From assembly GCA_043735145.1 (NCBI GenBank), contig JAYTEN010000041.1:1-31784 (forward strand): a stretch of 31,784 nucleotides of DNA, read 5' to 3'. The position numbers were made by a program, and so were the translations under genes. The notes below the pieces were generated by a model, which did not search any database, had not been told where the DNA came from, and was given only the letters and a program-made list of their open reading frames with translations. Shown in pieces: positions 6-29,088 of this stretch (position 1 is its first letter; each line of letters starts with the position of its first letter). The DNA is from Gemmatimonadota bacterium. Its GTDB lineage: Bacteria; Gemmatimonadota; Gemmatimonadetes; Gemmatimonadales; JACORV01.

Positions 6-1193
6 TCAGATACGCTCCACGGAAAGGGCGACGGCGTTTCCGCCACCAAGGCAGAGAGTGGCGAGCCCGGTGGCCTTGTCTCGAGCCTGCAAAGCATACA
101 GCAGCGTGGTGAGAACGCGAGCGCCGCTGGCGCCGATGGGATGACCGAGGGCGACGGCGCCGCCATTCACGTTGACGCGCGACCAGTCCCAGCCCAGCGC
201 GCGGCCGTCGGCGAGGGCCTGCACGGCGAACGCTTCGTTCGCCTCGATGAGATCGTAATCGCCGATCGTCTTCCCTTCCTTCTGCATCAGGTTCTGCACC
301 GCGACGATCGGCGCGAAGAAGAGGTCCTTCGGCTCGCCGCCACCCGTCGCGTACCCGCTCACGCGCGCCAGCGGCTTCAGGCCGTGGGCCTGCGCATAGG
401 CGAGCGAGGTCACGACGAGCGCGCTGCCGCCGTCGTTGAGCCCGGGCGCATTGCCGGCGGTGACGCTGCCGTCCTTCACGAAGACGGGCTTCAGCTTCGC
501 GAGCGCTTCGAGGGTGGTGTCATGGCGCGGCGCCTCGTCCTTGTCCACGATCGTCGTGCCCTTCCGATCGGCGATCTCGACGGGCGCGATCTCATTCTTG
601 AAATGACACGCCTGCTGCGCCGCCGCCGCCTTCTGCTGGCTCTCGAGCGCGAACTGGTCCTGGTCGGCGCGCGAGATGCCGGCCTTCGTGGCCGTGTACT
701 CCGCGTGGTTGCCCATGTGACAGTCGCCGAACGAGCACCAGAGCCCGTCCATGATGACGCCGTCCTTCATTTCGGTGTTGCCGAGCTTCACGCCATTGCG
801 CATGCCGAACAGGTAATGGGGCGCGTTCGACATCGATTCCTGCCCGCCCGCGACGACGACGTTGACGTCGCCCGCCGCGATCGCCTGCGCCGCGAGCATC
901 ACGGCCTTGAGTCCCGAGCCGCACACCATGTTGATCGTGACCGCGGGCGTAGTGCCCGGGATGCCGGCCTTGATCGCGGCCTGGCGGCCGGGCGCCTGGC
1001 CCGCCCCGCCCTGCACCACGTGCCCCATGATCACGTCCTGCACGTCGCTCACCGAAATGCCGGCGCGCGCGATCGCGGCCCTGATCGCGACGGCGCCGAG
1101 GTCGGAGGCCTTCAGCGGCGCGAGCGCGCCCATGAACTTGCCGATGGGCGTGCGCGCGGCGCTGACGATGACGGCGGTGTTCTTCGGATCCAT
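6..1193 (-). CDS. Acetyl-CoA C-acetyltransferase (thiolase), 395 aa
   Basis: Thiolase motifs NMVCGSGL (catalytic Cys), [13 protein letters not shown] and CLGGG. Start moved to MDPKN (ATG 1193) behind a purine-rich AAAGGGGA. The TGA at 8-6 overlaps an ATG at 6-4 (TGATG), so a coupled downstream gene probably begins at the window edge. Confidence 0.95.
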
Positions 1194-1216
1194 TGGTTCT
1201 CGTATCCCCTTTGAGA

Positions 1217-1237
1217 GGGCGACCACAAGGGTCGCCC
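1217..1237. repeat. REP-like palindrome / hairpin between thrS and thiolase
   Basis: GGGCGACC-ACAAG-GGTCGCCC, a perfect 8-bp stem. The minus strand reads GTTGGGGCGACCCTTGTGGTCGCCC, resembling GTAG-tagged REPs. Confidence 0.6.
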
Positions 1238-1248
1238 CAACGTGTTCG

Positions 1249-1368
1249 TTATAGATCGAGTGCGCGCGTTATAGATCGAGTGCGCGCCTTATAGATCGAG
1301 TGCGCGCCTTATAGATCGAGTGTGCGCCTTATAGATCGAGTGTGCGCGTCATAGATCGAGGGTGCGTG
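1249..1368. repeat. 20-bp tandem repeat x6 overlapping the thrS stop codon
   Basis: ATAGATCGAG recurs at 1251, 1271, 1291, 1311, 1331 and 1351. The intervening 10-mers are near-identical (TGCGCGCGTT, TGCGCGCCTT x2, TGTGCGCCTT, TGTGCGCGTC). Confidence 0.98.
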
Positions 1369-3274
1369 ATGCGATCCGTTCCTTCAGGTCCGCGATGAAT
1401 GCATCCTGCTGAATGATGTTCTGCTTGGTTCCGGTTCCCCGCGTGCGGACGGCCACGGCGCCGGACTCGGCTTCGCGACCGCCGATGACCGCGAGGTACG
1501 GCACCTTCATCGTCTCGCCGTCGCGGATCTTGTAGTTCAGCGTCTGGTTGCGGTCGTCGAGGTTCGAGCGCACGCCCGCCGCGCGCAGCTTCTGGTGCAG
1601 CGCCTGCGCCGCCTCATTCTGCGCATCGGCGATCGGCAGCACCCGCACCTGCTCGGGAGAGATCCACAGCGGGAAGGCGCCGGCGAAGTGCTCGATCAAA
1701 ATTCCCAGGAAGCGCTCGAACGATCCGCTCACCGCGCGGTGGATGACGACGGGCCGGTGCTCGGCGTTGTCCTCGCCCACATAGATCAGGTTGAAGCGCT
1801 CGGGGGCGGCGTAGTCGAGCTGGATGGTGCCCAGCTGCCAGGTCCGGCCAATGGAGTCGGCGACATGGAAATCGATCTTGGGCCCGTAGAAGGCGCCGTC
1901 GCCCGGATTCAGCGTATACGGCAGGTCGAGCGATTCCAGCGCGGCCTTGAGGCCCGCCTCGGCGCGATCCCACATCGCGTCGTCGCCGATCCGCATCGCC
2001 GGGCGGGTGCCGAACTTCAGCGCCGGCTTCAGGCCGAAGGTGTTGTAGAAACCCACGATGAAATCGGCGAGCCGCTTCACCTCGGCGGCGATCTGGCTTT
2101 CCATCATGAAGATGTGGCAGTCGTCCATCGAGAACTGGCGCACGCGCGTGAGCCCCGACAGCGCGCCCGACAGCTCGTTGCGATGGAGGACGTCGAACGT
2201 CGCCATGCGCAGCGGCAGCTCGCGATACGAATGCTTGCCGTGCGAGTACATCAGGTAGTGCGACGGGCAGTTCATGGGCTTCAGCGAGAAGTCATGCTCG
2301 CCCGACTCGTTGTCGAGCACCATGAACATGTTCTCCCGGTACTTGCCCCAGTGCCCCGACTGCTCCCACAACCCCTTGTTGTACATGAGGGGCGTCTTCA
2401 CTTCCTGGTAGCCGTCGCGCTGGAGCTCCTGGAGATAGCCGTGCAGCTCGTTGACCATCGTGGTCCCGCGCGCCGTCCAGAAGGGCGCGCCTGGGGCCCA
2501 GTGGTGGAACATGAACAGGTCGAGCTCGCGGCCCAGCTTGCGATGGTCGCGCTTGCGCGCCTCCTCGAGCCGCGTGAGGTAGGCGTCGAGATCCTCTTTC
2601 TTGAACCAGGCGGTGCCGTAGATGCGCTGCAGCATCTGGTTCCGCTCGTCGCCGCGCCAGTAGGCGCCCGCGCCGTGCAGCAGCTTGAAGTGCTGGATGC
2701 GGCCGGTGGACGGCACGTGCGGGCCGCGGCAGAGATCGACGAAGGGGCCATCGGTGTAGACGGAGATGGTCTCGGTGTCGGGGATTTCCGACAGGCGCTC
2801 GAGCTTCAGCGGGTCGCCGGCGAAGCGCTGCTCGGCGTCGGGCCGGTTCACGACTTCGCGCACGAAGGGGAAGTCGGCCTTCACCACCTCGCGCATCTCG
2901 GCCTCGATTTTCTCGAGGTCCTCGGGCGTGAAGGGACGCGGCACGGCGAAGTCATAGTAGAAGCCGTCTTCGATAGGCGGGCCGAAGCCGATGCCGGCAT
3001 CGGGGAAGATGCGCCGCACGGCGGTGGCCAGCGCGTGCGCGGCCGAGTGGCGGAGGACGCCGAGGGCGTCGGCGTCGCGGTCGGTGAGGATAGCGAAGGG
3101 ACCCGACGCCTGGAGGGGCCGGTTCATCTCGACGATCTGGCCATCCAGGCGCGCGGCGAGCGCGGCCTTGGCCAGGCGCGGACCGATCGACTCGGCCACC
3201 TGCAACGGGGTCGTGCCGGGATCGACGCGCCGCTCGCTGCCGTCGGGGAGTGTCAGGACAAGCTGTTCGGCCAT
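1349..3274 (-). CDS. thrS: Threonine--tRNA ligase, 641 aa
   Basis: N-terminal TGS domain (LTLPDGS), editing motifs RHSAAH and DLCRGPHV, KPMNCP, GLTRVRQF, GAFYGPKID, HRAVSGSFERF and a C-terminal anticodon-binding domain. Start at MAEQL. Confidence 0.98.
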   Translation of the reverse strand: MAEQLVLTLPDGSERRVDPGTTPLQVAESIGPRLAKAALAARLDGQIVEMNRPLQASGPFAILTDRDADALGVLRHSAAHALATAVRRIFPDAGIGFGPPIEDGFYYDFAVPRPFTPEDLEKIEAEMREVVKADFPFVREVVNRPDAEQRFAGDPLKLERLSEIPDTETISVYTDGPFVDLCRGPHVPSTGRIQHFKLLHGAGAYWRGDERNQMLQRIYGTAWFKKEDLDAYLTRLEEARKRDHRKLGRELDLFMFHHWAPGAPFWTARGTTMVNELHGYLQELQRDGYQEVKTPLMYNKGLWEQSGHWGKYRENMFMVLDNESGEHDFSLKPMNCPSHYLMYSHGKHSYRELPLRMATFDVLHRNELSGALSGLTRVRQFSMDDCHIFMMESQIAAEVKRLADFIVGFYNTFGLKPALKFGTRPAMRIGDDAMWDRAEAGLKAALESLDLPYTLNPGDGAFYGPKIDFHVADSIGRTWQLGTIQLDYAAPERFNLIYVGEDNAEHRPVVIHRAVSGSFERFLGILIEHFAGAFPLWISPEQVRVLPIADAQNEAAQALHQKLRAAGVRSNLDDRNQTLNYKIRDGETMKVPYLAVIGGREAESGAVAVRTRGTGTKQNIIQQDAFIADLKERIASRTLDL

Positions 3275-3396
3275 GCCTCGAGCGGGAGCGCACCCAGGAC
3301 CGGGCGCACCTGCCGTCCATAGAGAAAGAAGAGAGCGACCAGAACCAGGATGAGGACAAAGGCGATGCCCCAACCCAGCAATTGCCGGGGTGTCAT
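3253..3396 (-). CDS. Small single-pass membrane protein (47 aa) overlapping the thrS start
   Basis: MTPRQLLGWGIAFVLILVLVALFFLYGRQVRPVLG...; one clear hydrophobic helix flanked by Arg; 22-nt overlap with thrS. Confidence 0.55.
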   Translation of the reverse strand: MTPRQLLGWGIAFVLILVLVALFFLYGRQVRPVLGALPLEAWPNSLS

Positions 3397-3528
3397 CCGC
3401 GCCTGATTGGGTGTTCCGCCGGTCACCGGAGGGCCCCGTCCGGATGGCGCAACTTGCGATGGGGCGTACGTTTCGCCACTGTACAAGGAATGTAGTCGGG
3501 GGCTTGCCCCGCTGCCACCGGAGACACC

Positions 3529-3993
3529 GTGTCACGCACCAGGAAAGGCCGCCGATTCGAGGTCGCGGACCTGCTGGCAACCGCCGCCGGGTCGATCGTG
3601 GGCGTCGCCCTCGGTTTTATCGCCGCCGGGAGCGTGGGCCGGATCAACCGCACCCGGTTGAAAAACGCGATGGGCCGGCTGACGCTGCGCGGCGCCGCGC
3701 CCAAGCGCTGGACGGAAGACGAAGCGGAGCGGCTGGAAGCACGGGTGCTCGACGCGCTGGCGCAGGACGTGGTGCTCGCGCGGCGTCCGATCCGGGTGTC
3801 GGTCCTCGGGATGGGCCTGGTCGAGCTCACCGGCTCGGTGCTGCACACGGCGGAAGTCGGCGTCGCCAGTGACGTGGTTCAGTCGGTGCCGGGGGTGGAG
3901 ACGGTATTGAATCACCTGGTCGTCGACGCCCCCAGCCGCCCCGCCCAACCCGGGACGCAGGGACCCAACGTGCCTCGCGCCGCCCGCGGCTGA
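3529..3993 (+). CDS. BON domain-containing protein with N-terminal membrane anchor
   Basis: Hydrophobic segment GSIVGVALGFIAAG, then a BON-like pattern (VLDALAQD...IRVSV..GLVELTGSV...VVQSVPGVETVLNHLVV). GGAG precedes the GTG start. Confidence 0.8.
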   Translation: MSRTRKGRRFEVADLLATAAGSIVGVALGFIAAGSVGRINRTRLKNAMGRLTLRGAAPKRWTEDEAERLEARVLDALAQDVVLARRPIRVSVLGMGLVELTGSVLHTAEVGVASDVVQSVPGVETVLNHLVVDAPSRPAQPGTQGPNVPRAARG

Positions 3994-4015
3994 GTGGTGC
4001 AAGGTGACGACCTGC

Positions 4016-4041
4016 GGCCCGCCTGGCGGGCCTTCTTTTTT
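4016..4041 (+). terminator. Intrinsic terminator after the BON gene
   Basis: GGCCCGC-CTG-GCGGGCC followed by TTCTTTTTT. Confidence 0.8.
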
Positions 4042-4114
4042 GGCTGGAATCCGGAAGCTGGAGTCGGGACGACTCCCGGCGGCACTTCGGCTTCGGCCGG
4101 GCAGGCAATCGTCT

Positions 4115-4135
4115 AGATTCCAGATTCCAGATTCC
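4115..4135. repeat. 7-bp tandem repeat (AGATTCC)x3 upstream of valS
   Basis: Directly visible; a complementary CTGGAATC lies at 4044-4051. Confidence 0.85.
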
Positions 4136-4140
4136 GGTCT

Positions 4141-4146
4141 TACACT
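4141..4146 (+). promoter_or_regulatory. -10-like hexamer TACACT 9 nt before the valS ATG (possible leaderless or near-leaderless mRNA)
   Basis: TANNNT immediately upstream of the start, with no Shine-Dalgarno. Confidence 0.45.
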
Positions 4147-4155
4147 CAGGCGCGC

Positions 4156-6849
4156 ATGAACGAGACAGAACTCAGTCCCCAGTATTCTGCGTCCGCGATC
4201 GAGCCCCCGCTCTACCAGGAGTGGCTGGCCCGCGGCCTCTTCACGCCCGACCCGTTGTCGGACCGCGACCCCTTCGTCATCGTGATCCCGCCACCTAACG
4301 TGACGGACAAGCTCCACGTGGGCCACGGGCTGAACAACACCGTGCAGGACGTGATCGTGCGCTTCGAGCGCATGCGGGGGCGCGACACGCTGTGGCTGCC
4401 GGGCACCGACCACGCCGGCATCGCGACCCAGAACGTGGTCGAGAAGCTGCTCGCGAAGGAAGGGAAGACGCGCTTCGACCTGGGCCGCGAGGCGTTCGTG
4501 AAGCGGGTCGAGGCGTACGTGGCCAAGACCGGGACCACGATCCTCGAGCAGCTCAAGGCCATCGGCGCGTCGTGCGACTGGACCCGCACCGCGTACACCC
4601 TCTCGCCGCACCTCTCGCGCGCAGTGCGCGAGGTGTTCGTCCGCCTCTGGGAGGAAGAGCTGATCTACCGCGGCCACCGGGTGATCCACTGGTGCCCGCG
4701 GTGCCTGACGAGCTTGTCGGACGAAGAGGCCGAGCACACTGAGCGCGACGGGCATCTCTATCATATCCGGTATCCGCTGGCCGACGGCTCGGGCTTCGTC
4801 ACCGTGGCGACCACGCGCCCCGAGACGCTGCTGGGCGACGTCGCCATCGCGGTGAGCCCCGAGGACGAGGCCAAGGCGAAGTACATCGGGAAGATGGTGC
4901 GGGTGCCCTTCGCCGACGTGGAGATCCCGATCATCGCCGACGAGGCGGTGGAGATGGGTTTCGGCACCGGCTTCCTCAAGATCACGCCGGCCCACGACCC
5001 GAACGACTTCGAGACCGGCAAGCGCCACCACCTGCCGATGCCGGTGATCCTGGCTCCCGATGCAACCCTGGCCGACGCGGCGCTCGAGGGGAAGGCCGGC
5101 GGCCGCGTGCCGCCCGAGCTGTTCGGCATGGATCGCTTCGAGGCGCGGCGCGTCATGGTCGAGCAACTCAAGCACCTGAAGCTGCTCGAGAAGGTCGAGC
5201 CGCACCGCCATGCCATCCGCCACTGCTATCGCTGCGATACCATCGTGGAGCCGCGGCTCAGCGACCAGTGGTTCGTGCGCACGAAGGGGTTCGCCGAGCG
5301 GGCGCTGAAGGCCCACCTGGACGGCAAGGTGCGCTTCATCCCCGAGCGGCGGGGCGAGGAGTTCAACCAGTGGCTGGAGAACATCCGCGACTGGAACATC
5401 TCGCGGCAGCTCTGGTGGGGGCACCGCATCCCGGTCTGGTACTGCGATGCCTGCAAGACGTCGAAGGCGTACCGCGAAGACCCGACGGCGTGCGACACCT
5501 GCGCCGGCCCGCTGCGCCAGGACGAGGACGTGCTCGATACCTGGTTCAGCAGCTGGCTGTGGCCGTTCTCGACCCTGGGCTGGCCCGACGACACGGCCGA
5601 CCTGCGGCGCTACTACCCGACCGACGTGCTGGTCACGGCGCCGGAGATCCTGTTCTTCTGGGTGGCGCGGATGATCTTCGCCGGGATGCACTTCCTGGGC
5701 GAGGTGCCGTTCCACACCGTGTACCTGCACGGCACGGTGCGCGACACCCAGCACCGCAAGATGTCCAAGTCGTTAGGTAACGGCATCGACCCGCTGGATG
5801 TGGTGCGGCTCTACGGCGCCGACGCGCTGCGCTTCACCGTGACCAACGGCCTCGCCGTGGGCACCGACATCATCCTCGACAACAACGACCTCGAGGCGAG
5901 CTTCGCGAGCGGGCGGAATTTCGCCAACAAGCTGTGGAATGTCGGGCGGCTGGTGCTCTCGCACCTTGCGGACGGGGGGACGGGGGGATGGGGGGCCGGG
6001 GGGTCTGGAATCGATGCCGAACGGCTGACGCTGGCCGACCGGTGGATACTGTCCAGGCTCGACCGGTGCGTGCGCGAGGCGACCGACCACATGGAGCGCT
6101 TCCGGCTGAACGATGCGACCGGGACGCCGTACCACTTCCTGTGGGACGACTTCGCCGACTGGTATCTCGAGGCGATCAAGCCGCGCCTCTATGGCGACGA
6201 GCCGGGCGGCGACGTGGCGCGCGCGGTGGCGGTGCAGTGCTTCGACACGGTGCTGCGGCTGCTGCACCCGATCATGCCGTTCATCACCGAGACCCTTTTC
6301 CGCCGGCTTCCCGGCAACACCGGCCGCACCATCGTCACCGCCCCATGGCCGGCGACCCGCGGCGCCGAGGATACGGCGACGGAAGCGGACTTCGCGTTCG
6401 TGCAGGCGCTGGTGGACGGCATCCGCGCCATCCGCGCCGACGCCAACGTGAAGCCGGGGCAGACGGTCGCTGCGTCAATCGCGGGGCTCACGCCGCGCGC
6501 GCGGGCCGCCATGGACGCCGAACGCGGCATGATCATGCGTCTCGCCAGGCTGTCGTCGCTCGACGAAGCCGAGCCGTCGGGGCCAGGCGGGTTCGCGGTG
6601 CTGCCGGGCGGCGCGTCGGTGTTTGTGGGCCTGGCCGGCGCCGTGGACGTGGCGAAAGAATGTGGCCGCCTGGGCGAGGAGCTCCAGCGGCTCGAGCGCC
6701 AACTCGAAGGGCTCACGTCCAAGCTTGCCAACGAGAATTTTCTGGCCAAGGCAAAACCGGAAGTCGTGGTTCAGGAGCGACAGAAGCAGACCGACTGGAC
6801 CGAGAAGGCGGGAACGTTGCGGGCGAAGCAGAAGGCGCTGGGATGCTGA
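4156..6849 (+). CDS. valS: Valine--tRNA ligase, 897 aa
   Basis: PPPNVT..LHVGH (HIGH), GTDHAGIATQ, ATTRPET, ITPAHDPND, WNISRQLWWGHRIP, DVLDTWFSS, KMSKSLGN and a C-terminal coiled-coil arm. Confidence 0.98.
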   Translation: MNETELSPQYSASAIEPPLYQEWLARGLFTPDPLSDRDPFVIVIPPPNVTDKLHVGHGLNNTVQDVIVRFERMRGRDTLWLPGTDHAGIATQNVVEKLLAKEGKTRFDLGREAFVKRVEAYVAKTGTTILEQLKAIGASCDWTRTAYTLSPHLSRAVREVFVRLWEEELIYRGHRVIHWCPRCLTSLSDEEAEHTERDGHLYHIRYPLADGSGFVTVATTRPETLLGDVAIAVSPEDEAKAKYIGKMVRVPFADVEIPIIADEAVEMGFGTGFLKITPAHDPNDFETGKRHHLPMPVILAPDATLADAALEGKAGGRVPPELFGMDRFEARRVMVEQLKHLKLLEKVEPHRHAIRHCYRCDTIVEPRLSDQWFVRTKGFAERALKAHLDGKVRFIPERRGEEFNQWLENIRDWNISRQLWWGHRIPVWYCDACKTSKAYREDPTACDTCAGPLRQDEDVLDTWFSSWLWPFSTLGWPDDTADLRRYYPTDVLVTAPEILFFWVARMIFAGMHFLGEVPFHTVYLHGTVRDTQHRKMSKSLGNGIDPLDVVRLYGADALRFTVTNGLAVGTDIILDNNDLEASFASGRNFANKLWNVGRLVLSHLADGGTGGWGAGGSGIDAERLTLADRWILSRLDRCVREATDHMERFRLNDATGTPYHFLWDDFADWYLEAIKPRLYGDEPGGDVARAVAVQCFDTVLRLLHPIMPFITETLFRRLPGNTGRTIVTAPWPATRGAEDTATEADFAFVQALVDGIRAIRADANVKPGQTVAASIAGLTPRARAAMDAERGMIMRLARLSSLDEAEPSGPGGFAVLPGGASVFVGLAGAVDVAKECGRLGEELQRLERQLEGLTSKLANENFLAKAKPEVVVQERQKQTDWTEKAGTLRAKQKALGC
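5972..6003 (+). repeat. (NN-GGGGGG)x4 in-frame tract in valS, a G-quadruplex-type motif
   Basis: G6-AC-G6-AT-G6-CC-G6 (5974-6003), encoding DGGTGGWGAGG. Confidence 0.9.
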
Positions 6850-8384
6850 GAAAGACCGTCGAAACGTCGAAACGTCGAAACGTCAAAGCGTGGACATGTT
6901 TTCGCTTCGACGCTTCGACGCTTCGACGCTTCGACGTGTTGCTACTTGCTCTCATCGCCGCGTGCGCCTCCACCGGCGATCCCCCGGGCGGGGCGCCGGA
7001 CCGCACCCCGCCCACCGTTCTGAGCGTGTCGCCGGAATCGGGCGCGGTGCTCGGCGCGCCGCCCGCGGAAGCCCGCATCACCTTCGACGAAGTCATCAGC
7101 GAGCGCACCGGCGGCCAGCCGCCCGACATCAGCGCCGCCGTGTTGCTCTCACCGACGGCCGAAGCGGTGCGGGTGCAATGGAAGCGCGACCACATCACCG
7201 TGCGCCCCAAATCGGGATTCCAGGCGGGACGCATCTATCACCTCGAGCTGCTGCCCGTCATCACCGACCTGCGCACCAATCGGATGCGCGCCGGACGGAC
7301 CATCGTCTTCTCGACCGGCCCCGCGATCCCCGACTCGCGCCTCGAGGGCACCGTGGTGGACTGGGTCGCCGGCCGCCCCGCGGCGCGCGCGCTGATCGAG
7401 GCGGTGCTGATGCCCGACTCGCTGGTCTACCGCACCCTCGCCGACTCGGGCGGGGTGTTCCGGCTCTCGCAGGTCCCGCCCGGACACTACCGCGTCTACG
7501 GCGTGATCGACCAGAACAACGACCGCCGGCGCGGCCTGCGCGAGATCTACGACTCGGCCGGCGTGGACCTCGACAGCGTGGCGCCGCCACTGGAGCTGTA
7601 CGCGTTCGCGCGCGACACCGTCGGCCCGCGGCTGCGGCAGACCGAAGTCGTCGACTCGATGACGCTGAAGCTGACCTTCGACCGTCCCCTCGATCCCACG
7701 CTGGTGCTCGACACCGCCATGGTGACGGTCGCGGCGCTCGAGGATTCCACCACGGCGCTTCCGCTGCTCGGCGTGTACACGCTGAAGGGTCTCGACTCGG
7801 CAAAAACCCGCGCCGACTCGATCCGCCGCGCCGCCGCCGACACGCTGCCGCGCGTGCCCGCCGACAGCCTGCGCCCGCCGGCCGGCAACACCAGTCGCGG
7901 CATTCCGCCCGACACGACGCGCCGCGTGCGGCCCGACACCACCCGCCGCGCGCCGGGGGATACCACCCGCGCCCGCGCCCGGGCGGGTGCGCCGGTGCGC
8001 CCGCCGGTCCGGACGCCGCAGGATTCCACCTGGCGCACCGTCCGGCCGCCGCTCGATTCCACCCGCGCCGACCGGATGATCGCACGCCATCCCGCGCCCA
8101 CCGACGTGCGCATCGTGCAGCTCGCGGAGCCGCTGGTGCCCGGCACCCGGTACGTGGTCTTCGTGCGCGGCGCGCGCAGCCTGTCGGGGAATGCCAAGGA
8201 TGGGCGCGGGCAGGTGCGGGCGCCGAGACCAGCAAGGCAGGCGCCAGGTCGCCCAGTCGCCAAGCCAGACAGCGCCGGCGTGACGCCACCCGACAGCACG
8301 CAGCGCGATTCCACGCCGATGCGCGCGGATAGCGCGCGCCCGGCCCCGCGCGACAGCACCACCCCGCCGGTTCGCCGCCCGTGA
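6843..8384 (+). CDS. Ig-like (Big_5-type) domain lipoprotein with a carboxypeptidase-regulatory-like domain and low-complexity D-S/T-rich C-terminal region, 513 aa
   Basis: Lipobox LIAA-C followed by ASTGDPPGGAPDRTPP, resembling Bacteroidota C-A-x-x-G-x-P-x-GG-x-x-D-x-x-PP Ig-like lipoproteins; VPPGHYRVYG..D.N.D. The ATG at 6843 overlaps the valS stop; an alternative in-frame GTG lies at 6936. Confidence 0.75.
   Translation: MLRKTVETSKRRNVKAWTCFRFDASTLRRFDVLLLALIAACASTGDPPGGAPDRTPPTVLSVSPESGAVLGAPPAEARITFDEVISERTGGQPPDISAAVLLSPTAEAVRVQWKRDHITVRPKSGFQAGRIYHLELLPVITDLRTNRMRAGRTIVFSTGPAIPDSRLEGTVVDWVAGRPAARALIEAVLMPDSLVYRTLADSGGVFRLSQVPPGHYRVYGVIDQNNDRRRGLREIYDSAGVDLDSVAPPLELYAFARDTVGPRLRQTEVVDSMTLKLTFDRPLDPTLVLDTAMVTVAALEDSTTALPLLGVYTLKGLDSAKTRADSIRRAAADTLPRVPADSLRPPAGNTSRGIPPDTTRRVRPDTTRRAPGDTTRARARAGAPVRPPVRTPQDSTWRTVRPPLDSTRADRMIARHPAPTDVRIVQLAEPLVPGTRYVVFVRGARSLSGNAKDGRGQVRAPRPARQAPGRPVAKPDSAGVTPPDSTQRDSTPMRADSARPAPRDSTTPPVRRP
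6857..6935. repeat. Palindromic 8-bp microsatellite (CGTCGAAA)x3-4 ... (GCTTCGAC)x4
   Basis: Left arm 6857-6888, central ACATGT 6894-6899, right arm 6904-6935; the arms are reverse complements with one mismatch per unit. Confidence 0.92.
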
Positions 8385-8436: not shown

Positions 8437-9861
8437 ATGGACCCCCGCCGCGCGCTCCCGTCGGTGGATTCGCTCCTCCGCTCCCCCGCGATCGCGGCGT
8501 TAGGCGCGGCATCGGGGCGCGAGGCGCTGGTGCGCGCGATCCGCGGCACCCTCGCAGCGGTCCGCGCCACGCCGGGGATGCCGGCGCCGGCCGACGGGCA
8601 GTGGGCCCCGCTGATTTCGGCGCACCTCGCGGGCGCCGAGACGCCGACGCTGCGGCGGGTCGTCAACGCCACCGGGGTGGTGTTGCACACCAACCTCGGC
8701 CGGGCGCCCCTGGCGCGCAAAGCGCTCGATGCCATCGGCGAGGCCGCGGCCAACTACAGCACCCTCGAGTACGACGTCGCCAGGGGCGCCCGCGGCAGCC
8801 GCCATGTGCATTGCGCCGACCTGCTGACGGCATTGACCGGCGCGCCGGATGCAATGGTCGTGAACAACGCGGCGTCGGCGCTGCTCCTCGTGCTCGCGGC
8901 GGCGGCCGACGGCGGCCGCACCATCGTGTCCCGCGGCGAGCTGATCGAGATCGGCGGCGGGTTCCGCATTCCGGAGATCATGGAGCGGAGCGGGACGACG
9001 CTGGTCGAGGTGGGGACGACCAACAGAACTCGCGTGGGCGACTATGAACGGGCGATCGGCAAGCAGCCGCCAGGTCGCCAGGTCGCCAAGTCGCCCAGCC
9101 AGCGAACCTCGAGCGCCGTACCGCCATACCGCCGTACCGCCCTGCTCAAGGTGCACCGCTCCAACTTCAGGATCGAAGGCTTCACCGCGGAGGCCTCGCT
9201 CGAGGAGCTGGTGGCGCTGGGCAGGAAGAAGAAAGTGCCGGTGCTCTACGACCTCGGCGGCGGGCTGATGTTCGATCTCGACGTGCCGGGGCTGTCCGGA
9301 GAACCGACCCTTCCCGATTCGGCGCGCAGCGGCCCGACCGCCGTCGTCGCGTCGGGCGACAAGCTCCTCGGCGGACCGCAGGCCGGCATCATCGTCGGGA
9401 CCGCGAAGTTCGTCGCCGCGTGCCGCGCGCACCCGCTGGCGCGCGCGGCGCGCGCCGACAAGCTCACCCTCGCGGCGCTGTCGGCCACGCTTCAGCTCTA
9501 CCGCGATCCGGCCCGACGCGCGTCAATCCCGGTCATCGGCATGCTGACCATCCCGCTCCCGGAGCTGGAACAGCGCGCCGCCGTGCTGGCCGCCGCGCTG
9601 CCCGCCGCCGCGCGGGCCACCGTCGTGCCGACCCGCGCGGCGGTGGGCGGCGGCGCCTTCCCCGGCGTGGAGCTCGAGAGCCGCGGCGTCGCGCTCGATC
9701 CCGGGAACGTCAGCGCGAGCACCCTGGCCGCGCGGCTGCGCGCGCACCCGGTGCCGGTGGTGGGCGTGGTGCACAAGGGCCGCGTGGTGCTCGACGTCCG
9801 GGCGCTGCTGCACGGCGATGACGCCGTCATCGCCGACGCCGTCGCGGGCGCTCTGGCATGA
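8437..9861 (+). CDS. selA: L-seryl-tRNA(Sec) selenium transferase (SelA family, PLP-dependent)
   Basis: VVNATGVVLHTNLGRAPL, VVNNAASA, SRGELIEIGGGFRIPEIM, VEVGTTNRT, KVHRSNF and SGDKLLGGPQAG (PLP lysine). Confidence 0.93.
   Translation: MDPRRALPSVDSLLRSPAIAALGAASGREALVRAIRGTLAAVRATPGMPAPADGQWAPLISAHLAGAETPTLRRVVNATGVVLHTNLGRAPLARKALDAIGEAAANYSTLEYDVARGARGSRHVHCADLLTALTGAPDAMVVNNAASALLLVLAAAADGGRTIVSRGELIEIGGGFRIPEIMERSGTTLVEVGTTNRTRVGDYERAIGKQPPGRQVAKSPSQRTSSAVPPYRRTALLKVHRSNFRIEGFTAEASLEELVALGRKKKVPVLYDLGGGLMFDLDVPGLSGEPTLPDSARSGPTAVVASGDKLLGGPQAGIIVGTAKFVAACRAHPLARAARADKLTLAALSATLQLYRDPARRASIPVIGMLTIPLPELEQRAAVLAAALPAAARATVVPTRAAVGGGAFPGVELESRGVALDPGNVSASTLAARLRAHPVPVVGVVHKGRVVLDVRALLHGDDAVIADAVAGALA
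9070..9141 (+). repeat. Two 8-bp microsatellites inserted in frame in selA
   Basis: CCAGGTCG x2 plus CCAAGTCG (9070-9093), and GCCGTACC/GCCATACC/GCCGTACC (9115-9138). Confidence 0.9.
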
Positions 9862-12752: not shown

Positions 12753-12761
12753 CGCCGCCTT

Positions 12762-19540: not shown

Positions 19541-19993
19541 ATGCGCAAGACCCCCATCGTTCTTTGTGCCCTTCTCGCAACCACGCTCGCGGCGCGCCAG
19601 GCCCAGGCGCCCGGCATCCAGTGGGGCGCGTCGCCGCCGTTCTTCCCGGCGGGCGCGCGCTTCGCGGTGCTCCAGGGCGATCCCTCGAAGCCCGGCCCCT
19701 ACACGGTGCGGCTGTCGATGCCCGCCGGCTATACCATCAAGCCGCACTTTCATCCGACCGACGAGAATGTCACGGTAATGGCCGGCACCCTTGCCCTCGG
19801 CATGGGCGATTCCGTGGACGCCGGCCACGCGCGCCACCTGGTGGCGGGCGACTTCATCGTCGCGCCGGCGCAGGCGCACCACTTCGCCATGGCCCAGGAG
19901 CGCGCCGTGGTCCAGGTCCACGGCATGGGACCGTTCGTGATCACGTACGTGCGTCCCGCCGACGATCCTCGGCACACGCCGGCGGCGCACTAG
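19541..19993 (+). CDS. Secreted cupin domain protein, 150 aa
   Basis: GGAGG before ATG 19541; signal peptide; GDPSKPGPYTVRLSMP, cupin motif PHFHPTDENVTV and second motif AQAHHFA. Confidence 0.85.
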   Translation: MRKTPIVLCALLATTLAARQAQAPGIQWGASPPFFPAGARFAVLQGDPSKPGPYTVRLSMPAGYTIKPHFHPTDENVTVMAGTLALGMGDSVDAGHARHLVAGDFIVAPAQAHHFAMAQERAVVQVHGMGPFVITYVRPADDPRHTPAAH

Positions 19994-21882: not shown

Positions 21883-23304
21883 TCAGCAGCCGACGCGCTG
21901 CGTGCTCACCACGATCCGGTCCATGTAGCGATCCTGCGCCACCGGCGATCCGTTATTCCAGTAGTTCTCGAAGTACACCGCATTCAGCGCGTAAGCCGAG
22001 AAGGCGCCGAGGAAGTTCAGGTCGGTGCGGCTCGCGTCGAGCGTGCCGTTGATCCAGAACTCCGAGATGCCGTTCGACTGCCCCGCATCGTTCAGCCGCA
22101 CGTGCGACTCGATGCAGTACCAGGTCCCCGAATTCGCCGTCGAGTAGATCGGGATGCTGCCCTTGCGCGAGCCCAGGAAGCGCAGGTGCGCGAAGTCGTT
22201 GTACGTCGTCGTCTGGAGATTGCCGGCGGTATCGGTCCCCGACGCCGGGTCGATGAACAGGAAATTCTCGTTGGGCGGCTTGCCCGACCAGTTGTGCGCG
22301 ATGGCGGCCTGCGCGAAGGTCGTCGGCGACGCGAAGACGAAGGCGCGCGTCAGCTTGTCGCCGCCCCCGCCCGTCCAGCCCGGCGCGGTCCGGAAGTAGA
22401 GGCGGTAGTAGAGTTCGCGATAGTTCGCCGTCCCCGCATCCACCGGCCGCATGTAGGTCTGCGGCGTGCGGCCCAGCGCGAGATGCAGTGAGCCCGCGCT
22501 GACGGTGCCGGCGGCAAAGTGCGAGCGCATGCCGGTCGATCCGTTGTAGCCGCTCCCCGCCAGCCGCGTGAACTTGCCGCCCGAACTGTCGTACTCGAAG
22601 TAACTGCCGAGCCGGCTCGTCTCGAAGTCGTCACACCAGACCCAGCCCGCGTGGACACCCGCGCATTCGTTGTTCGCGCTGGCGGCGCCCGCCACGGTGA
22701 CGGCGGCAGTACCCGTCTTCGTCTCGCTCGTGGCGGTGACGGTGGCCGATCCCGCCGCCACGGCAGTCACCAGCCCGGAGGCCGAGACCGTCGCCACGCC
22801 CGCCGCGCTCGTGGACCAGGTCACCAGGCGACCCGCCAGCACGATGCCATTGGCATCCTTGGTGACGGCGCCCAGCCGGACGGTGTCGCCGATGACCAGC
22901 GACGGCGCACTCGGCGACACCGTCACCGAGGATACCGGCTTGGGGCCGGCCGCGGCCACCGAGACCGTCGCCGCGCCCGACTTCGTCTCGCTGGTGGCGG
23001 TGACCGTCACCCCTCCCACCGCGAGGGCCGTGACCAGGCCCGTCGCCGACACGCTGACGATCCCCGGTGTACCGGCGGCCCACGTCACGGCGCGGCCGCT
23101 CAGCGGCGCGCCGGTCGAATCGGCCAGGATGGCCGTCATCCGCACGGTGTCGCCGACGACCAGCGCGCTCGTGCCCGGCGAGACCATGACCTGCGCCACC
23201 GGGGCGACGGGCGGCGTGATGACCGGCGCGTCGGCGGCGGCGGAGCAGGCAATGCAGGCGAGCAGGACCAGCGCGGACGTGGTCGGGACGTTAGGCATGG
23301 TCAC
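21883..23304 (-). CDS. Exported (probable lipoprotein) protein: two Big_2 Ig-like domains plus a C-terminal polysaccharide-lyase/concanavalin-like beta-sandwich
   Basis: Signal ending LLACIAC; two repeats VxVSP....LVxGDTVRx.A...D..G..L.GR.VTW......xxxVSAxGLVTA.A.G..TVTATSETK.G.A.V.V; C-terminal WVWCDDFE...WYCIESHVRLNDAGQSNG..EFWING. The GTG start overlaps the upstream TGA (GTGA); alternative ATG at 23298. Confidence 0.75.
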   Translation of the reverse strand: MTMPNVPTTSALVLLACIACSAAADAPVITPPVAPVAQVMVSPGTSALVVGDTVRMTAILADSTGAPLSGRAVTWAAGTPGIVSVSATGLVTALAVGGVTVTATSETKSGAATVSVAAAGPKPVSSVTVSPSAPSLVIGDTVRLGAVTKDANGIVLAGRLVTWSTSAAGVATVSASGLVTAVAAGSATVTATSETKTGTAAVTVAGAASANNECAGVHAGWVWCDDFETSRLGSYFEYDSSGGKFTRLAGSGYNGSTGMRSHFAAGTVSAGSLHLALGRTPQTYMRPVDAGTANYRELYYRLYFRTAPGWTGGGGDKLTRAFVFASPTTFAQAAIAHNWSGKPPNENFLFIDPASGTDTAGNLQTTTYNDFAHLRFLGSRKGSIPIYSTANSGTWYCIESHVRLNDAGQSNGISEFWINGTLDASRTDLNFLGAFSAYALNAVYFENYWNNGSPVAQDRYMDRIVVSTQRVGC

Positions 23305-24245
23305 CTGTGGGTGGCATCGAGAGAATCGAGGAAGACCCGCACCGCGCGGATCATGGCATCGGGATTGTCATTGGTGGTGAGATGGCCGGAGTGGGGAATG
23401 ATCTCGACCTTCGACCCGGGAATCATGGCGGCAAAGGCCCGGGTGCTCGTCGGCGTGGCCTCGTCATGGTCGCCGGCGGTGAACAGCACCGGCAGGCGCA
23501 GCTCGTGCAGGCGCGGCGTGATGTCGTAGTGCTTCAGCGTGCCCGTCACCACGAACTCGCTCGCCCCCTGCATGTAGTTGTAGAGCGGCCCGGCGATCTG
23601 GGAGAAGCTGCTATCGGTGTCGGGGGTCGGCGGCGTGAGGAAGACGTACCGGCCATAATACTCCATGACGGCGCCCTGGTACGCCGCCGTCGTCTCGGCA
23701 TGCTGGGCTTCGAGGCGGTGGATCGTCCGCTGGGTGGAGTCGGGCATGGTGCGCAGGAGGCTGTCGGCATCGTGCAGCCACATCGGAATCGAGAGCGCGC
23801 TGCTGGCGAGGATCAGCCCGCGCACGCCGCCCTGATGCGCCAGTGCGTATTCGGTCCCGAGGATCGTGCCCCAGGAATGGCCGAGGATGTACACGTCGCG
23901 GATGCCGAGGGAATCGCGCAGCGCCTGGAGCTCGCGCACGAAGCGCGGGATATTGAAGAGCGCGGTGTCGGTGACGTGGTCCGACTTTCCCGCCCCGAGC
24001 TGGTCGTAGATGATGACCGGCCGCTCGTCGGCCAGGGCGAGCAGCGGCTTGAGATAGTAGCTCGGCACCCCCGGCCCGCCATGGAGCAGGATCAGCGGCG
24101 TCTTCGTTCCCGACCCGGCGATCCGATACCAGATGTGGCCGCCTTCGACCGGGATCCGGCCCTCGCGCGGCTGGAGCGCATGCGGTCTTTTGCCGCAGGA
24201 CACCACGGACAGGGCGAGGAGGACGGCGGACACGACACGGCGCAT
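23301..24245 (-). CDS. Proline iminopeptidase-family alpha/beta hydrolase with lipoprotein signal, 314 aa
   Basis: LLHGGPG, YDQLGAGKS, GHSWG nucleophile, GDHDE and SGH; lipobox VVS-C; GGAG SD. Confidence 0.88.
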   Translation of the reverse strand: MRRVVSAVLLALSVVSCGKRPHALQPREGRIPVEGGHIWYRIAGSGTKTPLILLHGGPGVPSYYLKPLLALADERPVIIYDQLGAGKSDHVTDTALFNIPRFVRELQALRDSLGIRDVYILGHSWGTILGTEYALAHQGGVRGLILASSALSIPMWLHDADSLLRTMPDSTQRTIHRLEAQHAETTAAYQGAVMEYYGRYVFLTPPTPDTDSSFSQIAGPLYNYMQGASEFVVTGTLKHYDITPRLHELRLPVLFTAGDHDEATPTSTRAFAAMIPGSKVEIIPHSGHLTTNDNPDAMIRAVRVFLDSLDATHR

Positions 24246-27500: not shown

Positions 27501-27733
27501 ATGCAGCTCTTGAAGTACTGGCGGTTCTCGTCGACCAGGCTGATCAGCGCGACGGGCGCTTTAAGCAGCCGGGCGGTGAGGCGCGTGAGGCGATCGAACG
27601 CCTCTTCCGCCGGCGAGTCCAGCAGGTCCAGTGCCCGCAGGTGCGCCAGGCGGACGGGGTCACGCAACACGTCAGGGGCAACCGCCTGCGGTGGCTGCCT
27701 GGTACCACGTCGGGTGTGCTTCCGCGGGCCCAT
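24518..27733 (-). CDS. Hybrid sensor histidine kinase (GAF-PASx4-HisKA-HATPase-REC), about 1071 aa
   Basis: GAF (LDSPAEEAFDRLTRL..., GTLCVID), PAS_3-like WDWDL...HPDD, further PAS domains, GGIAHDFNNVL, FEPFFTTK, GTGLGLA and receiver LLVEDE..LLTDMVMP..QKPF. Start taken at MGPRK. Confidence 0.93.
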   Translation of the reverse strand: MGPRKHTRRGTRQPPQAVAPDVLRDPVRLAHLRALDLLDSPAEEAFDRLTRLTARLLKAPVALISLVDENRQYFKSCIGLGKPWCDLRETPLSHSICQYVVVTGEPLVISDARRNPLVRHNLAIPDLGVVAYAGIPLRTHDGHVLGTLCVIDHKPRRWTKAEIGLLEHLATCVLSSIELRAVALSARRAEVRLREEEHRVRHILSQVPATVWTTDRDLRLTSSLGAGLGALNLAPDQVVGMSLYEHMGTNATAIAAHRDALAGEAIGHEIEWQGRHFYYRVVPLRDLQGAISGVVGVAEDITDRRLATVASQANRERFELVARATNDVVWDWDLQTDALWWNENFETAFGHPRDGAVDITSWTSHLHPDDLDRVVHGIHAVIDQGGSAWTDDYRFRRADGSYADIYDRGFVLRDSRGAPTRMLGAMMDMTERRRAETALRTSEATLRGVIDASLDSVIVVNDTGIITGWNAQAERTFGWTAGEAVGRPIEETIIPPVDRGLHRHGFDRFIATGEARILGQRIFRDARRRDGSLVPVELGIVPLRIDGHWVFSAFVRDLSESRRVEAEQRRLLAILEGTTDYVGSATAEGRMLYLNRAGRRLVGIAEQEDVVGRPVSDFRPAWASELILREGLPAAIRDGAWVGETALLARDGREIPVSQVILAHKGADGSVEFLSTVARDITALQLLQRQLAESQKMEAIGRLAGGIAHDFNNVLTAISGYTDLLIATVDADDPRRQDLAEIRRGADRASDLTHQLLAFSRRQVLQPRPLDLNATVDELVRMLERLIGEHIQLVIERDPDLGAVLADDSQIGQVILNLAINARDAMPSGGRLTLSTRNVELDADGGRAWGLPPGRFAALEVADSGTGMDENTMARIFEPFFTTKQSGTGLGLATVYGIVQQSGGAIRVDSARGRGTSFVVLLPRVDARPEMRAPEMPRDPAASASGTILLVEDEAAVRALLSRVLIRHGYTVLEASDGAQGLVLAEEHRGHIDLLLTDMVMPQLSGRQVAERVRLLDGRIQIVLMSGYSEEDALNQGAVSAGTLFLQKPFTIATLLETVQRAGELAARTDG

Positions 27734-27819
27734 CGCTGGAACATTGTCCCCCTCGACAGCCACCGCAAGCACGCCCCGCCGTTGTCGGCCCCCGCGGCCG
27801 CTCTTAACTTAGGCGGCTC

Positions 27820-29088
27820 ATGATCCGCGTCCGATTCGCCCCGTCGCCCACCGGCTACCTCCATGTGGGGGGCGCCCGCACGGCCCTCTTCAACTGGCTC
27901 TTCGTCCAGCACGCGCGACGTGCGGGCGAGGACGCGACCTTCATCCTGCGCATCGAGGACACCGACAAGGAGCGCTCGACCGCGGCGTTCACCCAGGTCA
28001 TCCTCGACGGAATGGCGTGGCTCGGCATGACGCCCGACGAGGGGCCATTCTTCCAGGCCGAGGGCAAGGCGCGCCACCAAGCCGACGCCGACCGCCTCGT
28101 GGCCGAGGGCAAGGCATACCTCGACGACGGCGCGGTGCGCTTTCGCGTGCCGCAGGAAGAGATCGCCTGGGACGACGCGGTCCACGGCCGCATCAGCTTC
28201 CAGGGCAAGGACCTCCAGGACTTCGTCATCCTGCGCGCCGACCGCTCACCGATCTACAACCTTGCGGTCGTCTCCGACGACGTGGACATGAAGATCACGC
28301 ACGTGATCCGCGCCGATGAACACATCTCCAACACGCCCAAGCAGATCCTGCTCTACCGCGCCCTCGGTTACGCGCAGCCGATCTTCGGGCACGTGCCCGT
28401 CGTCAATGGCGCGGATGGCAAGAAGCTCTCCAAGCGGCGCGGCGCCGTCGCCGTCGGCGACTACCAGGAGCGATTCCTGCCGGAGGCGATGGTCAACTTC
28501 CTCGTGCTCATCGGCTGGAGCCCGGGCGGCGACCGCGAGCTGTTCTTCGACCTCAATGAGCTGATCGACGCATTCGCCATCAAGGGGCTCCAGTCGAAAT
28601 CCGGCGTCTTCGACGAGAAGAAGCTCGAGTGGATGAACGCCGAGCACCTGAAGCACATGGGCGCGGCGAAGGTGCTCGCGCGGCTGCACGACGCCGAGCT
28701 GGTGGCGGCGCCTAACGCCGAAGCGATGGTGGGGATCGTGCTGCCCCGCAGCAAGACCATCACCGACGTGCGCGCGCAGGCCCGCAGCCGCGCCGGCCTC
28801 GACCCGATCATCACCGATGACAAGGCGAAGGCGTACGTCGACAAGGACCCCGACGGGTATCGCAGGGGACTCGCGCTCACCGTCCAGGCGCTGCAAGCCA
28901 CCGACGACTGGTCGGCCGCGAATCTCGAGGCGGTCCTGCGCGCCGTGGCGGAGTCGCACGGACTGAAGGCGGGCCAGGTCATGCAGCCGATCCGCATCGC
29001 CCTCACTGGGTCGACGGTGTCGGAGCCGGTGAACGAGACGCTGCACGTGATCGGGAAGGACGCGGCACTCGAACGTCTGAGCCTTTGA
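27820..29088 (+). CDS. gltX: Glutamate--tRNA ligase, short form (422 aa)
   Basis: RVRFAPSPTGYLHVGGARTALFNW, LRIEDTD, YNLAVVSDD, HISNTPKQ, KKLSKR (KMSKS equivalent) and a C-terminal anticodon-binding helices motif (MQPIRIALTG). TAACTT lies 9 nt upstream of the ATG. Confidence 0.93.
   Translation: MIRVRFAPSPTGYLHVGGARTALFNWLFVQHARRAGEDATFILRIEDTDKERSTAAFTQVILDGMAWLGMTPDEGPFFQAEGKARHQADADRLVAEGKAYLDDGAVRFRVPQEEIAWDDAVHGRISFQGKDLQDFVILRADRSPIYNLAVVSDDVDMKITHVIRADEHISNTPKQILLYRALGYAQPIFGHVPVVNGADGKKLSKRRGAVAVGDYQERFLPEAMVNFLVLIGWSPGGDRELFFDLNELIDAFAIKGLQSKSGVFDEKKLEWMNAEHLKHMGAAKVLARLHDAELVAAPNAEAMVGIVLPRSKTITDVRAQARSRAGLDPIITDDKAKAYVDKDPDGYRRGLALTVQALQATDDWSAANLEAVLRAVAESHGLKAGQVMQPIRIALTGSTVSEPVNETLHVIGKDAALERLSL

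Follow-up and report, generated by a model that had tools for sequence, protein, structure and literature searches.

Why should the exported proteins encoded in one stretch of 31,784 nucleotides, here called the window, carry the tripeptide D-(S/T)-(A/I/L/V/M/T) several times more often than their cytoplasmic neighbors? In Bacteroidota this tripeptide is the experimentally defined sequon for O-glycosylation; S is favored over T, E is not tolerated, and glycoproteomics found its sites to be almost completely glycosylated (PMC12871550). The same work termed the system unique to Bacteroidota and named only the Fibrobacterota as similarly enriched (PMC12871550). A sequence-only reading of the window had counted the sites by hand and proposed that their concentration in exported proteins reflects a periplasmic general O-glycosylation system.

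The host, an uncultured soil-type bacterium of the Gemmatimonadales, belongs to the Gemmatimonadota and not to the Bacteroidota. Its ValS was closest to those of Gemmatimonadales MAGs (65-80% identity), and the MAG grouped with Gemmatimonadota genomes in a genome search. Gemmatimonadota is a phylum within the FCB superphylum. In the 2.46-Mb MAG (69% GC, 83% complete), we called 2350 genes and sorted their products into signal-peptide (SPI), lipoprotein (LIPO), membrane (TM), and cytoplasmic (CYT) classes; both the gene calls and the signal-peptide classes came from heuristics that we built ourselves, not from SignalP or DeepTMHMM. The sequon was scored as D-[ST]-[AILVMT], and the expectation was taken from each protein's own composition or from per-protein shuffles. 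The family assignments of the window proteins were all upheld by Pfam, and lipoboxes or signal peptides were present at the N-termini of its exported proteins. The features of the window are the following, with sequons observed and expected.

6843..8384, + strand: Ig-like (Big_5 + CarboxypepD_reg) lipoprotein, 513 aa, lipobox LIAAC; 21 sequons, 2.6 expected
10554..11915, + strand: PPC-domain exported protein, 453 aa; 1 sequon, 1.6 expected, no enrichment despite export
14435..15904, + strand: DUF4932 lipoprotein, 489 aa, lipobox LAIAC; 8 sequons, 1.5 expected
17966..18988, - strand: CarboxypepD_reg exported protein, 340 aa, start codon uncertain; 5 sequons, 1.2 expected
19541..19993, + strand: exported cupin, 150 aa; 1 sequon, 0.3 expected
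21883..23304, - strand: Big_2 lipoprotein, 473 aa, lipobox CIAC; 4 sequons, 1.7 expected
23301..24245, - strand: alpha/beta-hydrolase (proline iminopeptidase-like, Pip-like) lipoprotein, 314 aa, lipobox VVSC; 5 sequons, 1.1 expected
29157..30911, + strand: polytopic membrane protein with an extracytoplasmic sulfatase-family domain (DUF3413 + Sulfatase), 584 aa; 4 sequons, 1.9 expected
6-1193, - strand: thiolase, cytoplasmic comparator
1349-3274, - strand: ThrS, cytoplasmic comparator
3598-3993: small BON-domain protein, in the group of cytoplasmic comparators; 0 sequons
4156-6849, + strand: ValS, cytoplasmic comparator
8437..14336, + strand: SelA, GmhB-like HAD phosphatase, PurN, and PurH, cytoplasmic comparators; 3 sequons together, 3.2 expected
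15925..17907, - strand: cytoplasmic hybrid histidine kinase (PAS-HisKA-HATPase-REC), 660 aa; 0 sequons, 2.0 expected
24518-27670, - strand: GAF-PAS hybrid histidine kinase, cytoplasmic comparator; 2 sequons, 3.8 expected
27820-29088, + strand: GltX, cytoplasmic comparator; 0 sequons, 1.2 expected

Our recount reproduced every hand count exactly (21/513, 8/489, 5/314, 5/340, and 4/473), giving 43 sites in 2129 aa for the five exported proteins against 8.1 expected (5.3-fold). The eight cytoplasmic enzymes carried 10 sites in 3748 aa, as counted before, with 9.2 expected; seven of these, against 4.8 expected, were in thiolase, ThrS, and ValS (within 6..6849). The single sites in the PPC and cupin proteins, which had been entered as a caveat, were likewise recovered. 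When the comparison took in every exported (seven) and every cytoplasmic (thirteen) protein of the window, the counts were 45/2733 and 15/6000, respectively (Fisher p = 4e-12). The rate in the window, 2.0 sites per 100 aa, exceeds that of exported proteins across the genome, which averages 0.78 per 100 aa, and about half of the sites come from one lipoprotein with a sequon-array tail. In this Ig-like protein, 14 of the 21 sequons lie in an Arg/Pro-rich, low-complexity C-terminal half at a spacing of ~8 residues. For the DUF4932 lipoprotein, no orthologue was found in the five relatives searched with that query. The Big_2 lipoprotein was filed by our predictor as a membrane protein because its n-region lacks K/R. 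The gene for the exported PPC protein sits among those for SelA, the GmhB-like phosphatase, PurN, and PurH.

The contrast between exported and cytoplasmic proteins held across the whole genome. Observed/expected ratios (O/E) were 2.45 for SPI, 2.86 for LIPO, 1.66 for TM, and 1.03 for CYT proteins, with shuffle z-scores of 28.3, 20.8, 10.0, and 1.0, respectively. It had been cautioned that exported proteins are rich in S and T; indeed, their S+T content was 12.7-14.8%, compared to 10.1%. Nevertheless, the enrichment survived correction for D/S/T composition: relative to per-protein shuffles, exported proteins carried 2.5 to 2.9 times the expected number of sequons and cytoplasmic ones 1.03 times. 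A first-order (dipeptide) expectation was also exceeded (1.60 vs 1.19). Of the exported proteins with a length of 100 aa or more, 80% had at least one sequon (59% expected) and 44% had three or more. The signal was robust to start-codon choice, to protein length, and to dropping the richest proteins. We conclude that exported proteins carry the sequon at ~2.5 times the chance frequency and that cytoplasmic proteins carry it at chance level.

C-terminal domains of N-terminally anchored proteins gave an O/E of 2.1-2.2. In 196 polytopic proteins, whose loops were assigned by the positive-inside rule, a predictor too crude for this comparison, 'cytoplasmic' loops gave 1.39 and 'periplasmic' loops 1.66. 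The sequon-richest proteins of the MAG are genuine constituents of the envelope: LptD-N, TamB, SprA, TPR proteins, and Big_2/RCC1 proteins. The richest 'cytoplasmic' outliers proved to be exported proteins missed by the predictor, a misclassification that can only dilute the contrast between the classes.

The signal was also specific to the motif. Seven control tripeptides (the reversed motif, E[ST]X, N[ST]X, D[ST]-nonX, D[AG]X, [ST]DX, and DX[ST]) gave 0.64-1.22 in every class of the MAG. When each position was scanned in exported proteins, D alone was enriched at position 1 (2.54; E, 0.90), and only S (3.38) and T (1.77) were enriched at position 2. At position 3, the enriched residues were L (3.30), T (2.59), V (2.41), A (2.28), M (2.23), and I (2.13), with S weakly enriched (1.45) and the remaining residues below 1. 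The same scan was flat in cytoplasmic proteins. At all three positions the enriched residues are those of the Bacteroidota sequon, including the preference for S over T and the exclusion of E (PMC12871550).

Comparison genomes were run through the same pipeline, using samples of 100-340 kb per genome or record rather than whole proteomes. As the sequence-only reading had anticipated, the proteobacterial negatives, E. coli K-12, a Cupriavidus chromid (66% GC), and an Azospirillum plasmid (67% GC), showed no enrichment (pooled exported O/E of 1.07), while three Bacteroidota genomes, whose phylum label rests on one locus (L040, Balneolaceae), gave 2.42. Two genomes labelled Gammaproteobacteria (G022 and G025) were left out of the negatives; they were placed in an apparently CPR-like phylum of 0.5-2 Mb genomes. 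A Hymenobacter plasmid, also a Bacteroidota record, was not enriched (0.78), which we take as evidence neither way. Four other genomes of the order to which the MAG belongs (G013, G015, G113, and G121) gave 1.6 to 2.4 each and 1.94 pooled. No enrichment was seen in sister orders of the same class (0.82 pooled, three genomes of 66-69% GC). Enrichment is patchy within the Gemmatimonadota and, among the sampled genomes, proteome-wide only in this order. The footprint is specific to compartment and, at each of the three positions, to the motif, and the negative-control lineages lack it; the proposal of periplasmic general O-glycosylation is supported in silico, the enrichment having neither vanished on composition correction nor appeared in the proteobacterial and sister-order negatives.

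Individual orthologues gave the same picture. Within the order, TamB carries 19-26 sequons compared to 4 in E. coli, and the LptD-like protein carries 13-19 compared to 1. In three TamB orthologues with 27-37% identity, six sequon columns were kept in all three sequences; none of five control tripeptides had any such column.

Could such a footprint arise in some other way? The S+T content of exported proteins, the error-prone gene calls at 69% GC, and the proteins misfiled by the predictor would all favor an artifact of composition, secondary structure, high GC, or gene and signal-peptide calling. This explanation is largely refuted: per-protein shuffles already absorb composition, reversed and near-neighbor tripeptides are not enriched, the high-GC negatives and same-class Gemmatimonadota gave values of ~1 or less in the same pipeline, TamB and the LptD-like protein of E. 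coli have 1-4 sites, and misclassification only dilutes the contrast. It is also improbable, if somewhat less so, that the sequons are relics of an ancestral glycosylation system and persist in the MAG without an active one. Such a history would fit the patchy enrichment across Gemmatimonadota and the fact that we identified no dedicated glycosylation locus in the MAG (83% complete). However, the excess is found in all five sampled genomes of the order (2.5-fold, z 28), and individual sites are kept at 27% overall identity. Because neutral three-residue motifs would decay, both observations call for continuing purifying selection.

Selection could still act for a reason other than glycosylation, for example a different modification in the periplasm (such as phosphorylation or the attachment of lipid or peptide), a site read by an FCB-specific chaperone, protease, or sorting factor, or a structural or Ca-binding turn that suits envelope proteins of the clade. 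The evidence for a glycan in the MAG is purely statistical, and Gemmatimonadota and Bacteroidota share FCB-specific envelope machinery, namely SprA of the T9SS and BamG/H (PMC12611786), so that a shared reader of this kind is conceivable. We consider it unlikely, given that the residue sets at the three positions match the Bacteroidota sequon mapped by glycoproteomics (PMC12871550) and that the literature we examined describes no other reader of a D-S/T-X motif. Judging from the sequence evidence taken together, we favor, with a probability of roughly 0.77, the reading that selection favors D-(S/T)-(A/I/L/V/M/T) in the extracytoplasmic proteome of the MAG as the acceptor sequon of a Bacteroidota-type general O-glycosylation. 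The Bacteroidota system would then probably also be at work in a second phylum, the Gemmatimonadota. A literature search found no biochemical evidence of glycosylation for any member of the Gemmatimonadota.

The Bacteroidota system targets only extracytoplasmic proteins, and its motif occurs in roughly 50% or more of the proteins outside the cytoplasm. Its glycan has a Man-Rha-GlcA core common to most species, and to our knowledge its core flippase and ligase are still undiscovered. Among known systems, this one, represented by B. fragilis LFG, Elizabethkingia/Flavobacterium, Tannerella, Porphyromonas, and Prevotella, is the closest to what we observed. It uses the same three-residue sequon; in both cases only Sec-exported proteins, lipoproteins, and membrane proteins show the footprint, with the motif in most extracytoplasmic proteins and a similar magnitude (2.5 in the MAG, 2.4 in Bacteroidota). 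The differences are the host phylum and the surroundings of the MAG metG. No LFG-like metG-wzx-glycosyltransferase array was seen at this gene (C68:10736-12277, -), whose upstream side lies beyond the contig end in a MAG that is 83% complete; the gene downstream specifies an exported protein of 300 aa that has a single hydrophobic segment and is not a flippase.

Other systems show a more partial likeness. Those of the PglL/PilO type (Neisseria, Burkholderia, Acinetobacter) transfer an Und-PP-linked glycan en bloc to Ser/Thr of many exported proteins in the periplasm, but their targets are low-complexity Ala/Pro/Ser-rich stretches, and they do not require a strict tripeptide in which Asp is obligatory. 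One Wzy_C-domain protein is encoded in the MAG (C306:20035-21303); this says little, since Wzy_C proteins are ubiquitous O-antigen ligases and were also present in 9 of 14 control genomes. PglB N-glycosylation (Campylobacter, D/E-X-N-X-S/T) is likewise periplasmic, sequon-directed, and aimed at exported proteins, with an acidic specificity residue. However, it modifies Asn through an STT3-type transferase and a five-residue sequon, and N[ST]X was not enriched in the MAG (0.64-0.78). GT-C protein O-mannosyltransferases include the actinobacterial and fungal PMTs and human TMEM260 (PMC10214176); the MAG encodes a strong TMEM260-like homologue, although neither PMT nor TMEM260 is known to read a D-S/T-X sequon.

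In most Bacteroidota species the glycan is Man-linked to Ser/Thr, and the oligosaccharyltransferase is undiscovered even there (PMC12871550); our literature search found no Bacteroidota transferase published since 2024. The TMEM260-like (PF11028) GT-C homologue of the MAG (C97:16874-19462, E 3e-40) is a candidate, at this point only a lead. The enzyme is single-copy and near-universal in Bacteroidota. PF11028 was found in 24 of 25 Bacteroidota and all 61 Gemmatimonadota sampled; among 14 control genomes it was found only in B. thetaiotaomicron, and one Chloroflexota genome gave a weaker match. As a marker of enrichment it was rejected, being present in non-enriched Gemmatimonadota as well. No paralogue in the tree follows the enrichment; the complete and enriched genome G013 carries the common copy and no other. 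PMT_2 (PF13231) gave sub-threshold hits only, in a tandem GT-C+TPR cluster adjoining pilin-like genes, which is probably a separate matter. A bolder and rather doubtful possibility is that sequon-directed O-glycosylation is ancestral to the FCB superphylum, with the TMEM260-like GT-C as initiating transferase, a periplasmic O-mannosyltransferase reading D-S/T-hydrophobic. If true, lineages would differ only in breadth, proteome-wide in the order of the MAG and limited to a few proteins (e.g., LptD-like) in sister orders.

We infer the attachment of a glycan at the MAG sequons, the structure of this glycan, and the enzyme by analogy with Bacteroidota. By that analogy, Sec would export the proteins, many in the form of lipoproteins. 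A membrane transferase would then recognize Asp-Ser/Thr-hydrophobic in exposed segments on the periplasmic side and O-link to it a glycan built on undecaprenyl phosphate and flipped across the inner membrane.

What is new here, and supported in silico, is a Gemmatimonadota lineage for a system already known from Bacteroidota. A clean, position-specific footprint in Gemmatimonadales would move the origin of the system deeper into the FCB superphylum. Because related lineages show strong, no, or even depleted sequon usage, phylogenetic profiling could be used to find the missing enzymes. Finally, these soil bacteria are abundant, and their lipoproteins, LptD, TamB, and SprA are probably glycosylated, which would matter for structural and proteomic work on these proteins.

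The window (69% GC) is contig C41 of a MAG of 2.46 Mb (323 contigs, completeness 83%). Our own self-training gene caller, which scores each ORF by codon log-odds and greedily chooses non-overlapping ORFs, called 2350 genes in this MAG at a coding density of 91.5%. MAGs whose titles name Gemmatimonadales or Gemmatimonadota have a ValS 65-80% identical to the window's; after these, identity drops to at most 47%. Pfam bore out the gene annotation of the sequence-only reading, giving a cytoplasmic set of thiolase, ThrS, ValS, SelA, a GmhB-like HAD phosphatase, PurN, PurH, GltX, and two hybrid histidine kinases, and an exported set of Big_5/CarboxypepD_reg, PPC, DUF4932, CarboxypepD_reg, cupin, Big_2, and alpha/beta-hydrolase proteins. 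Lipoboxes are present in four exported proteins (LIAAC, LAIAC, CIAC, and VVSC). Because SelA (selenocysteine synthase, 8437-9861) is encoded here, the organism probably makes selenoproteins. A gene cut by the contig end (31554-31784) matches Peptidase_M2 over its C-terminal 76 residues (E 1.6e-27); this is the angiotensin-converting-enzyme family, which is uncommon among bacteria.

Previous counts of the Bacteroidota O-glycosylation sequon, D-(S/T)-(A/I/L/V/M/T), proved exact: 21/513, 8/489, 5/314, 5/340, and 4/473 aa in five exported proteins, 10 sites in 3748 aa of eight cytoplasmic enzymes, and, as had been cautioned, a single site apiece in the PPC and cupin proteins. With the expectation set by the D, S+T, and AILVMT content of each individual protein, the five exported proteins carry 43 sequons where 8.1 are expected, and the eight enzymes carry 10 where 9.2 are expected. 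Taking all window proteins, the sequon rate is 6.6-fold higher in the exported than in the cytoplasmic set (p = 4e-12). Since a single lipoprotein (6843-8384) supplies half of the window's sequons, the window overstates the MAG-wide mean for exported proteins, 0.78 per 100 aa. In the Arg/Pro-rich, low-complexity tail that forms the C-terminal half of this lipoprotein (7790-8384), the sequons are arrayed at a spacing of ~8 residues and include DSA, DSI, DTL, DSL, three DTT, and DST; the tail looks like a mucin-like glycan-array linker, not a folded domain. Both large hybrid histidine kinases have rather few sequons for cytoplasmic proteins: 0 versus 2.0 expected (15925-17907) and 2 versus 3.8 expected (24518-27670).

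The contrast between exported and cytoplasmic proteins survived composition-shuffled controls across the whole MAG, with proteins assigned to compartments by our own heuristic predictor of signal peptides, lipoboxes, and TM segments.

Sequons in the MAG by predicted compartment (O/E, observed/expected)
Signal-peptide proteins (358): observed 935, expected 382, O/E 2.45, shuffle z 28
Lipoproteins (116): observed 322, expected 113, O/E 2.86, shuffle z 21
Membrane proteins (400): observed 455, expected 274, O/E 1.66, shuffle z 10
Cytoplasmic proteins (1316): observed 996, expected 965, O/E 1.03, shuffle z 1.0

Several of the sequon-rich outliers filed as "cytoplasmic" are exported proteins missed by the predictor, the window's own lipoprotein among them, so the true contrast is somewhat larger than measured. 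At least one sequon is found in 80% of exported proteins versus 59% expected. The signal has the same strength for signal peptides at called and at alternative starts, and it is kept across all length classes and without the richest proteins; the sequon-richest are LptD-N, TamB, SprA, periplasmic TPR proteins, and a Big_2/RCC1 protein.

The enrichment is specific to the motif. Control tripeptides (the reversed motif, E[ST]X, N[ST]X, D[ST]-nonX, D[AG]X, [ST]DX, and DX[ST]) gave 0.64-1.22 in every class. In exported proteins, enrichment at position 1 is confined to Asp (2.54; Glu 0.90) and at position 2 to Ser (3.38) and Thr (1.77), while at position 3 Leu, Thr, Val, Ala, Met, and Ile are enriched (2.1-3.3) and Ser weakly so (1.45). 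The same scan of cytoplasmic proteins gave no enrichment at any position. Glycoproteomics has established that the Bacteroidota sequon prefers Ser and does not tolerate Glu (PMC12871550), and our scan recovers that sequon, both features included, from sequence statistics alone.

Control genomes were run through the same pipeline, with 100-340 kb sampled per genome or record; the three Bacteroidota were chosen from the phylum that includes a Balneolaceae MAG.

Exported O/E in control genomes
E. coli K-12: 1.15
Cupriavidus chromid (66% GC): 1.00
Azospirillum plasmid (67% GC): 0.81
Bacteroidota G027: 3.01
Bacteroidota G031: 2.59
Bacteroidota G040: 1.51

This comparison, which the sequence-only reading had proposed, separated the pooled Bacteroidota (2.42) from the pooled negatives (1.07) in these 100-340 kb samples. 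Cytoplasmic O/E in the three Bacteroidota was 1.12. A Hymenobacter plasmid, a single record, showed no enrichment (exported 0.78). Two genomes titled "uncultured Gammaproteobacteria" (G022 and G025; loci L035 and L068) were placed in a phylum with sampled genomes of 0.5-2 Mb, and their ValS resembles Saccharibacteria ValS; their NCBI labels are probably wrong.

Comparing matched families removes protein-family effects: TamB has 19-26 sequons in the MAG's order versus 4 in E. coli, and the LptD-like protein 13-19 versus 1. In three TamB orthologues of 27-37% identity, six sequon columns are conserved across all three genomes versus 0 for each of five control tripeptides, indicating purifying selection on individual sites. 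We conclude that the sequon enrichment is real and highly significant, and that composition, GC content, protein family, and pipeline do not explain it.

Within Gemmatimonadota, four other genomes of the order are enriched (G013 2.38, G015 1.60, G113 1.96, G121 2.23; pooled exported O/E 1.94, z about 11; cytoplasmic 0.91). Sister orders of the same class, at 63-69% GC, are unenriched in exported proteins (G126 0.79, G132 1.24, G117 1.20), and another genome of the class, G129 (sampled at C1 1,000,001-1,100,000, 2,000,001-2,140,000, and 3,000,001-3,160,000), is depleted in exported (0.48, P = 3.5e-6), TM (0.68), and cytoplasmic (0.69) proteins alike. Nevertheless, G126, G129, and G132 each have an LptD-like orthologue with 19-29 sequons, so the motif may still be read there but be in narrow use. 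In G129, whose LptD-like protein (L274) has 19 sequons despite the genome-wide depletion, the tag may be avoided outside a few dedicated targets. Across all the Gemmatimonadota sampled, no protein is as consistently rich in sequons as the LptD-N protein (L249, G000:C269:12111-13835, in the MAG; orthologues L271-L275), with 13-29 sites and O/E 4.5-9.4, versus 1 site in E. coli LptD. Other classes of the phylum gave 1.2-1.4 without clear compartment contrast. In one family (f8: G081, G083, G085, G087, G089, G091), predicted cytoplasmic proteins equal the exported class at ~1.5, an excess that may stem from signal peptides overlooked at lower GC or from a D-S bias across the genome.

Even in Bacteroidota no transferase, core flippase, or ligase has yet been identified (PMC12871550), so gene content cannot settle membership in the system. 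An LFG-like (metG-wzx-glycosyltransferase) arrangement was not seen at the MAG's metG, itself at a contig end, and the one Wzy_C protein belongs to a generic family. The MAG does encode a strong TMEM260-like GT-C homologue (C97:16874-19462, E 3e-40), which aligns with Bacteroidota copies over ~700 residues at 30-37% identity. Its family, PF11028, is present in 24/25 Bacteroidota and 61/61 Gemmatimonadota sampled; among 14 control genomes it occurs in B. thetaiotaomicron only, and it was not found in E. coli or the Cupriavidus chromid. In humans, TMEM260 acts as a protein O-mannosyltransferase (PMC10214176), and mannose is the linking sugar of most Bacteroidota O-glycans (PMC12871550), which makes the MAG's homologue an attractive candidate. 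However, neither its presence nor any paralogue tracks sequon enrichment within Gemmatimonadota, and our literature search found no paper tying the family to the sequon system; we regard it as a lead only. In many f2- and f3-family genomes a TMEM260-like gene lies ~6 kb from valS (G013:C2, G015:C4, G017:C3, G097:C9, G113:C1, G121:C3, G125:C2, G108:C3); in the MAG it is on a different contig from valS, C97, and the 21-sequon lipoprotein occupies the valS-adjacent position. Elsewhere in the MAG, four tandem GT-C-like multi-TM + TPR genes (L246, G000:C54:606-9465; 567-663 aa, weak PMT_2 matches) directly adjoin three small pilin-like genes with an N_methyl motif, possibly a cassette that glycosylates pilins or pseudopilins and is distinct from the sequon system.

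Taken together, the best explanation of the statistical footprint is the one first proposed from the window, periplasmic general O-glycosylation: we put at roughly three in four the chance that a Bacteroidota-type, sequon-directed system operates in this Gemmatimonadales lineage. Beyond that footprint, we infer the glycan, the enzyme, and site occupancy. Only Bacteroidota and Fibrobacterota are named in a 2025 review (PMC12871550); measured against the published record, the finding would add a new phylum to the range of a known system.
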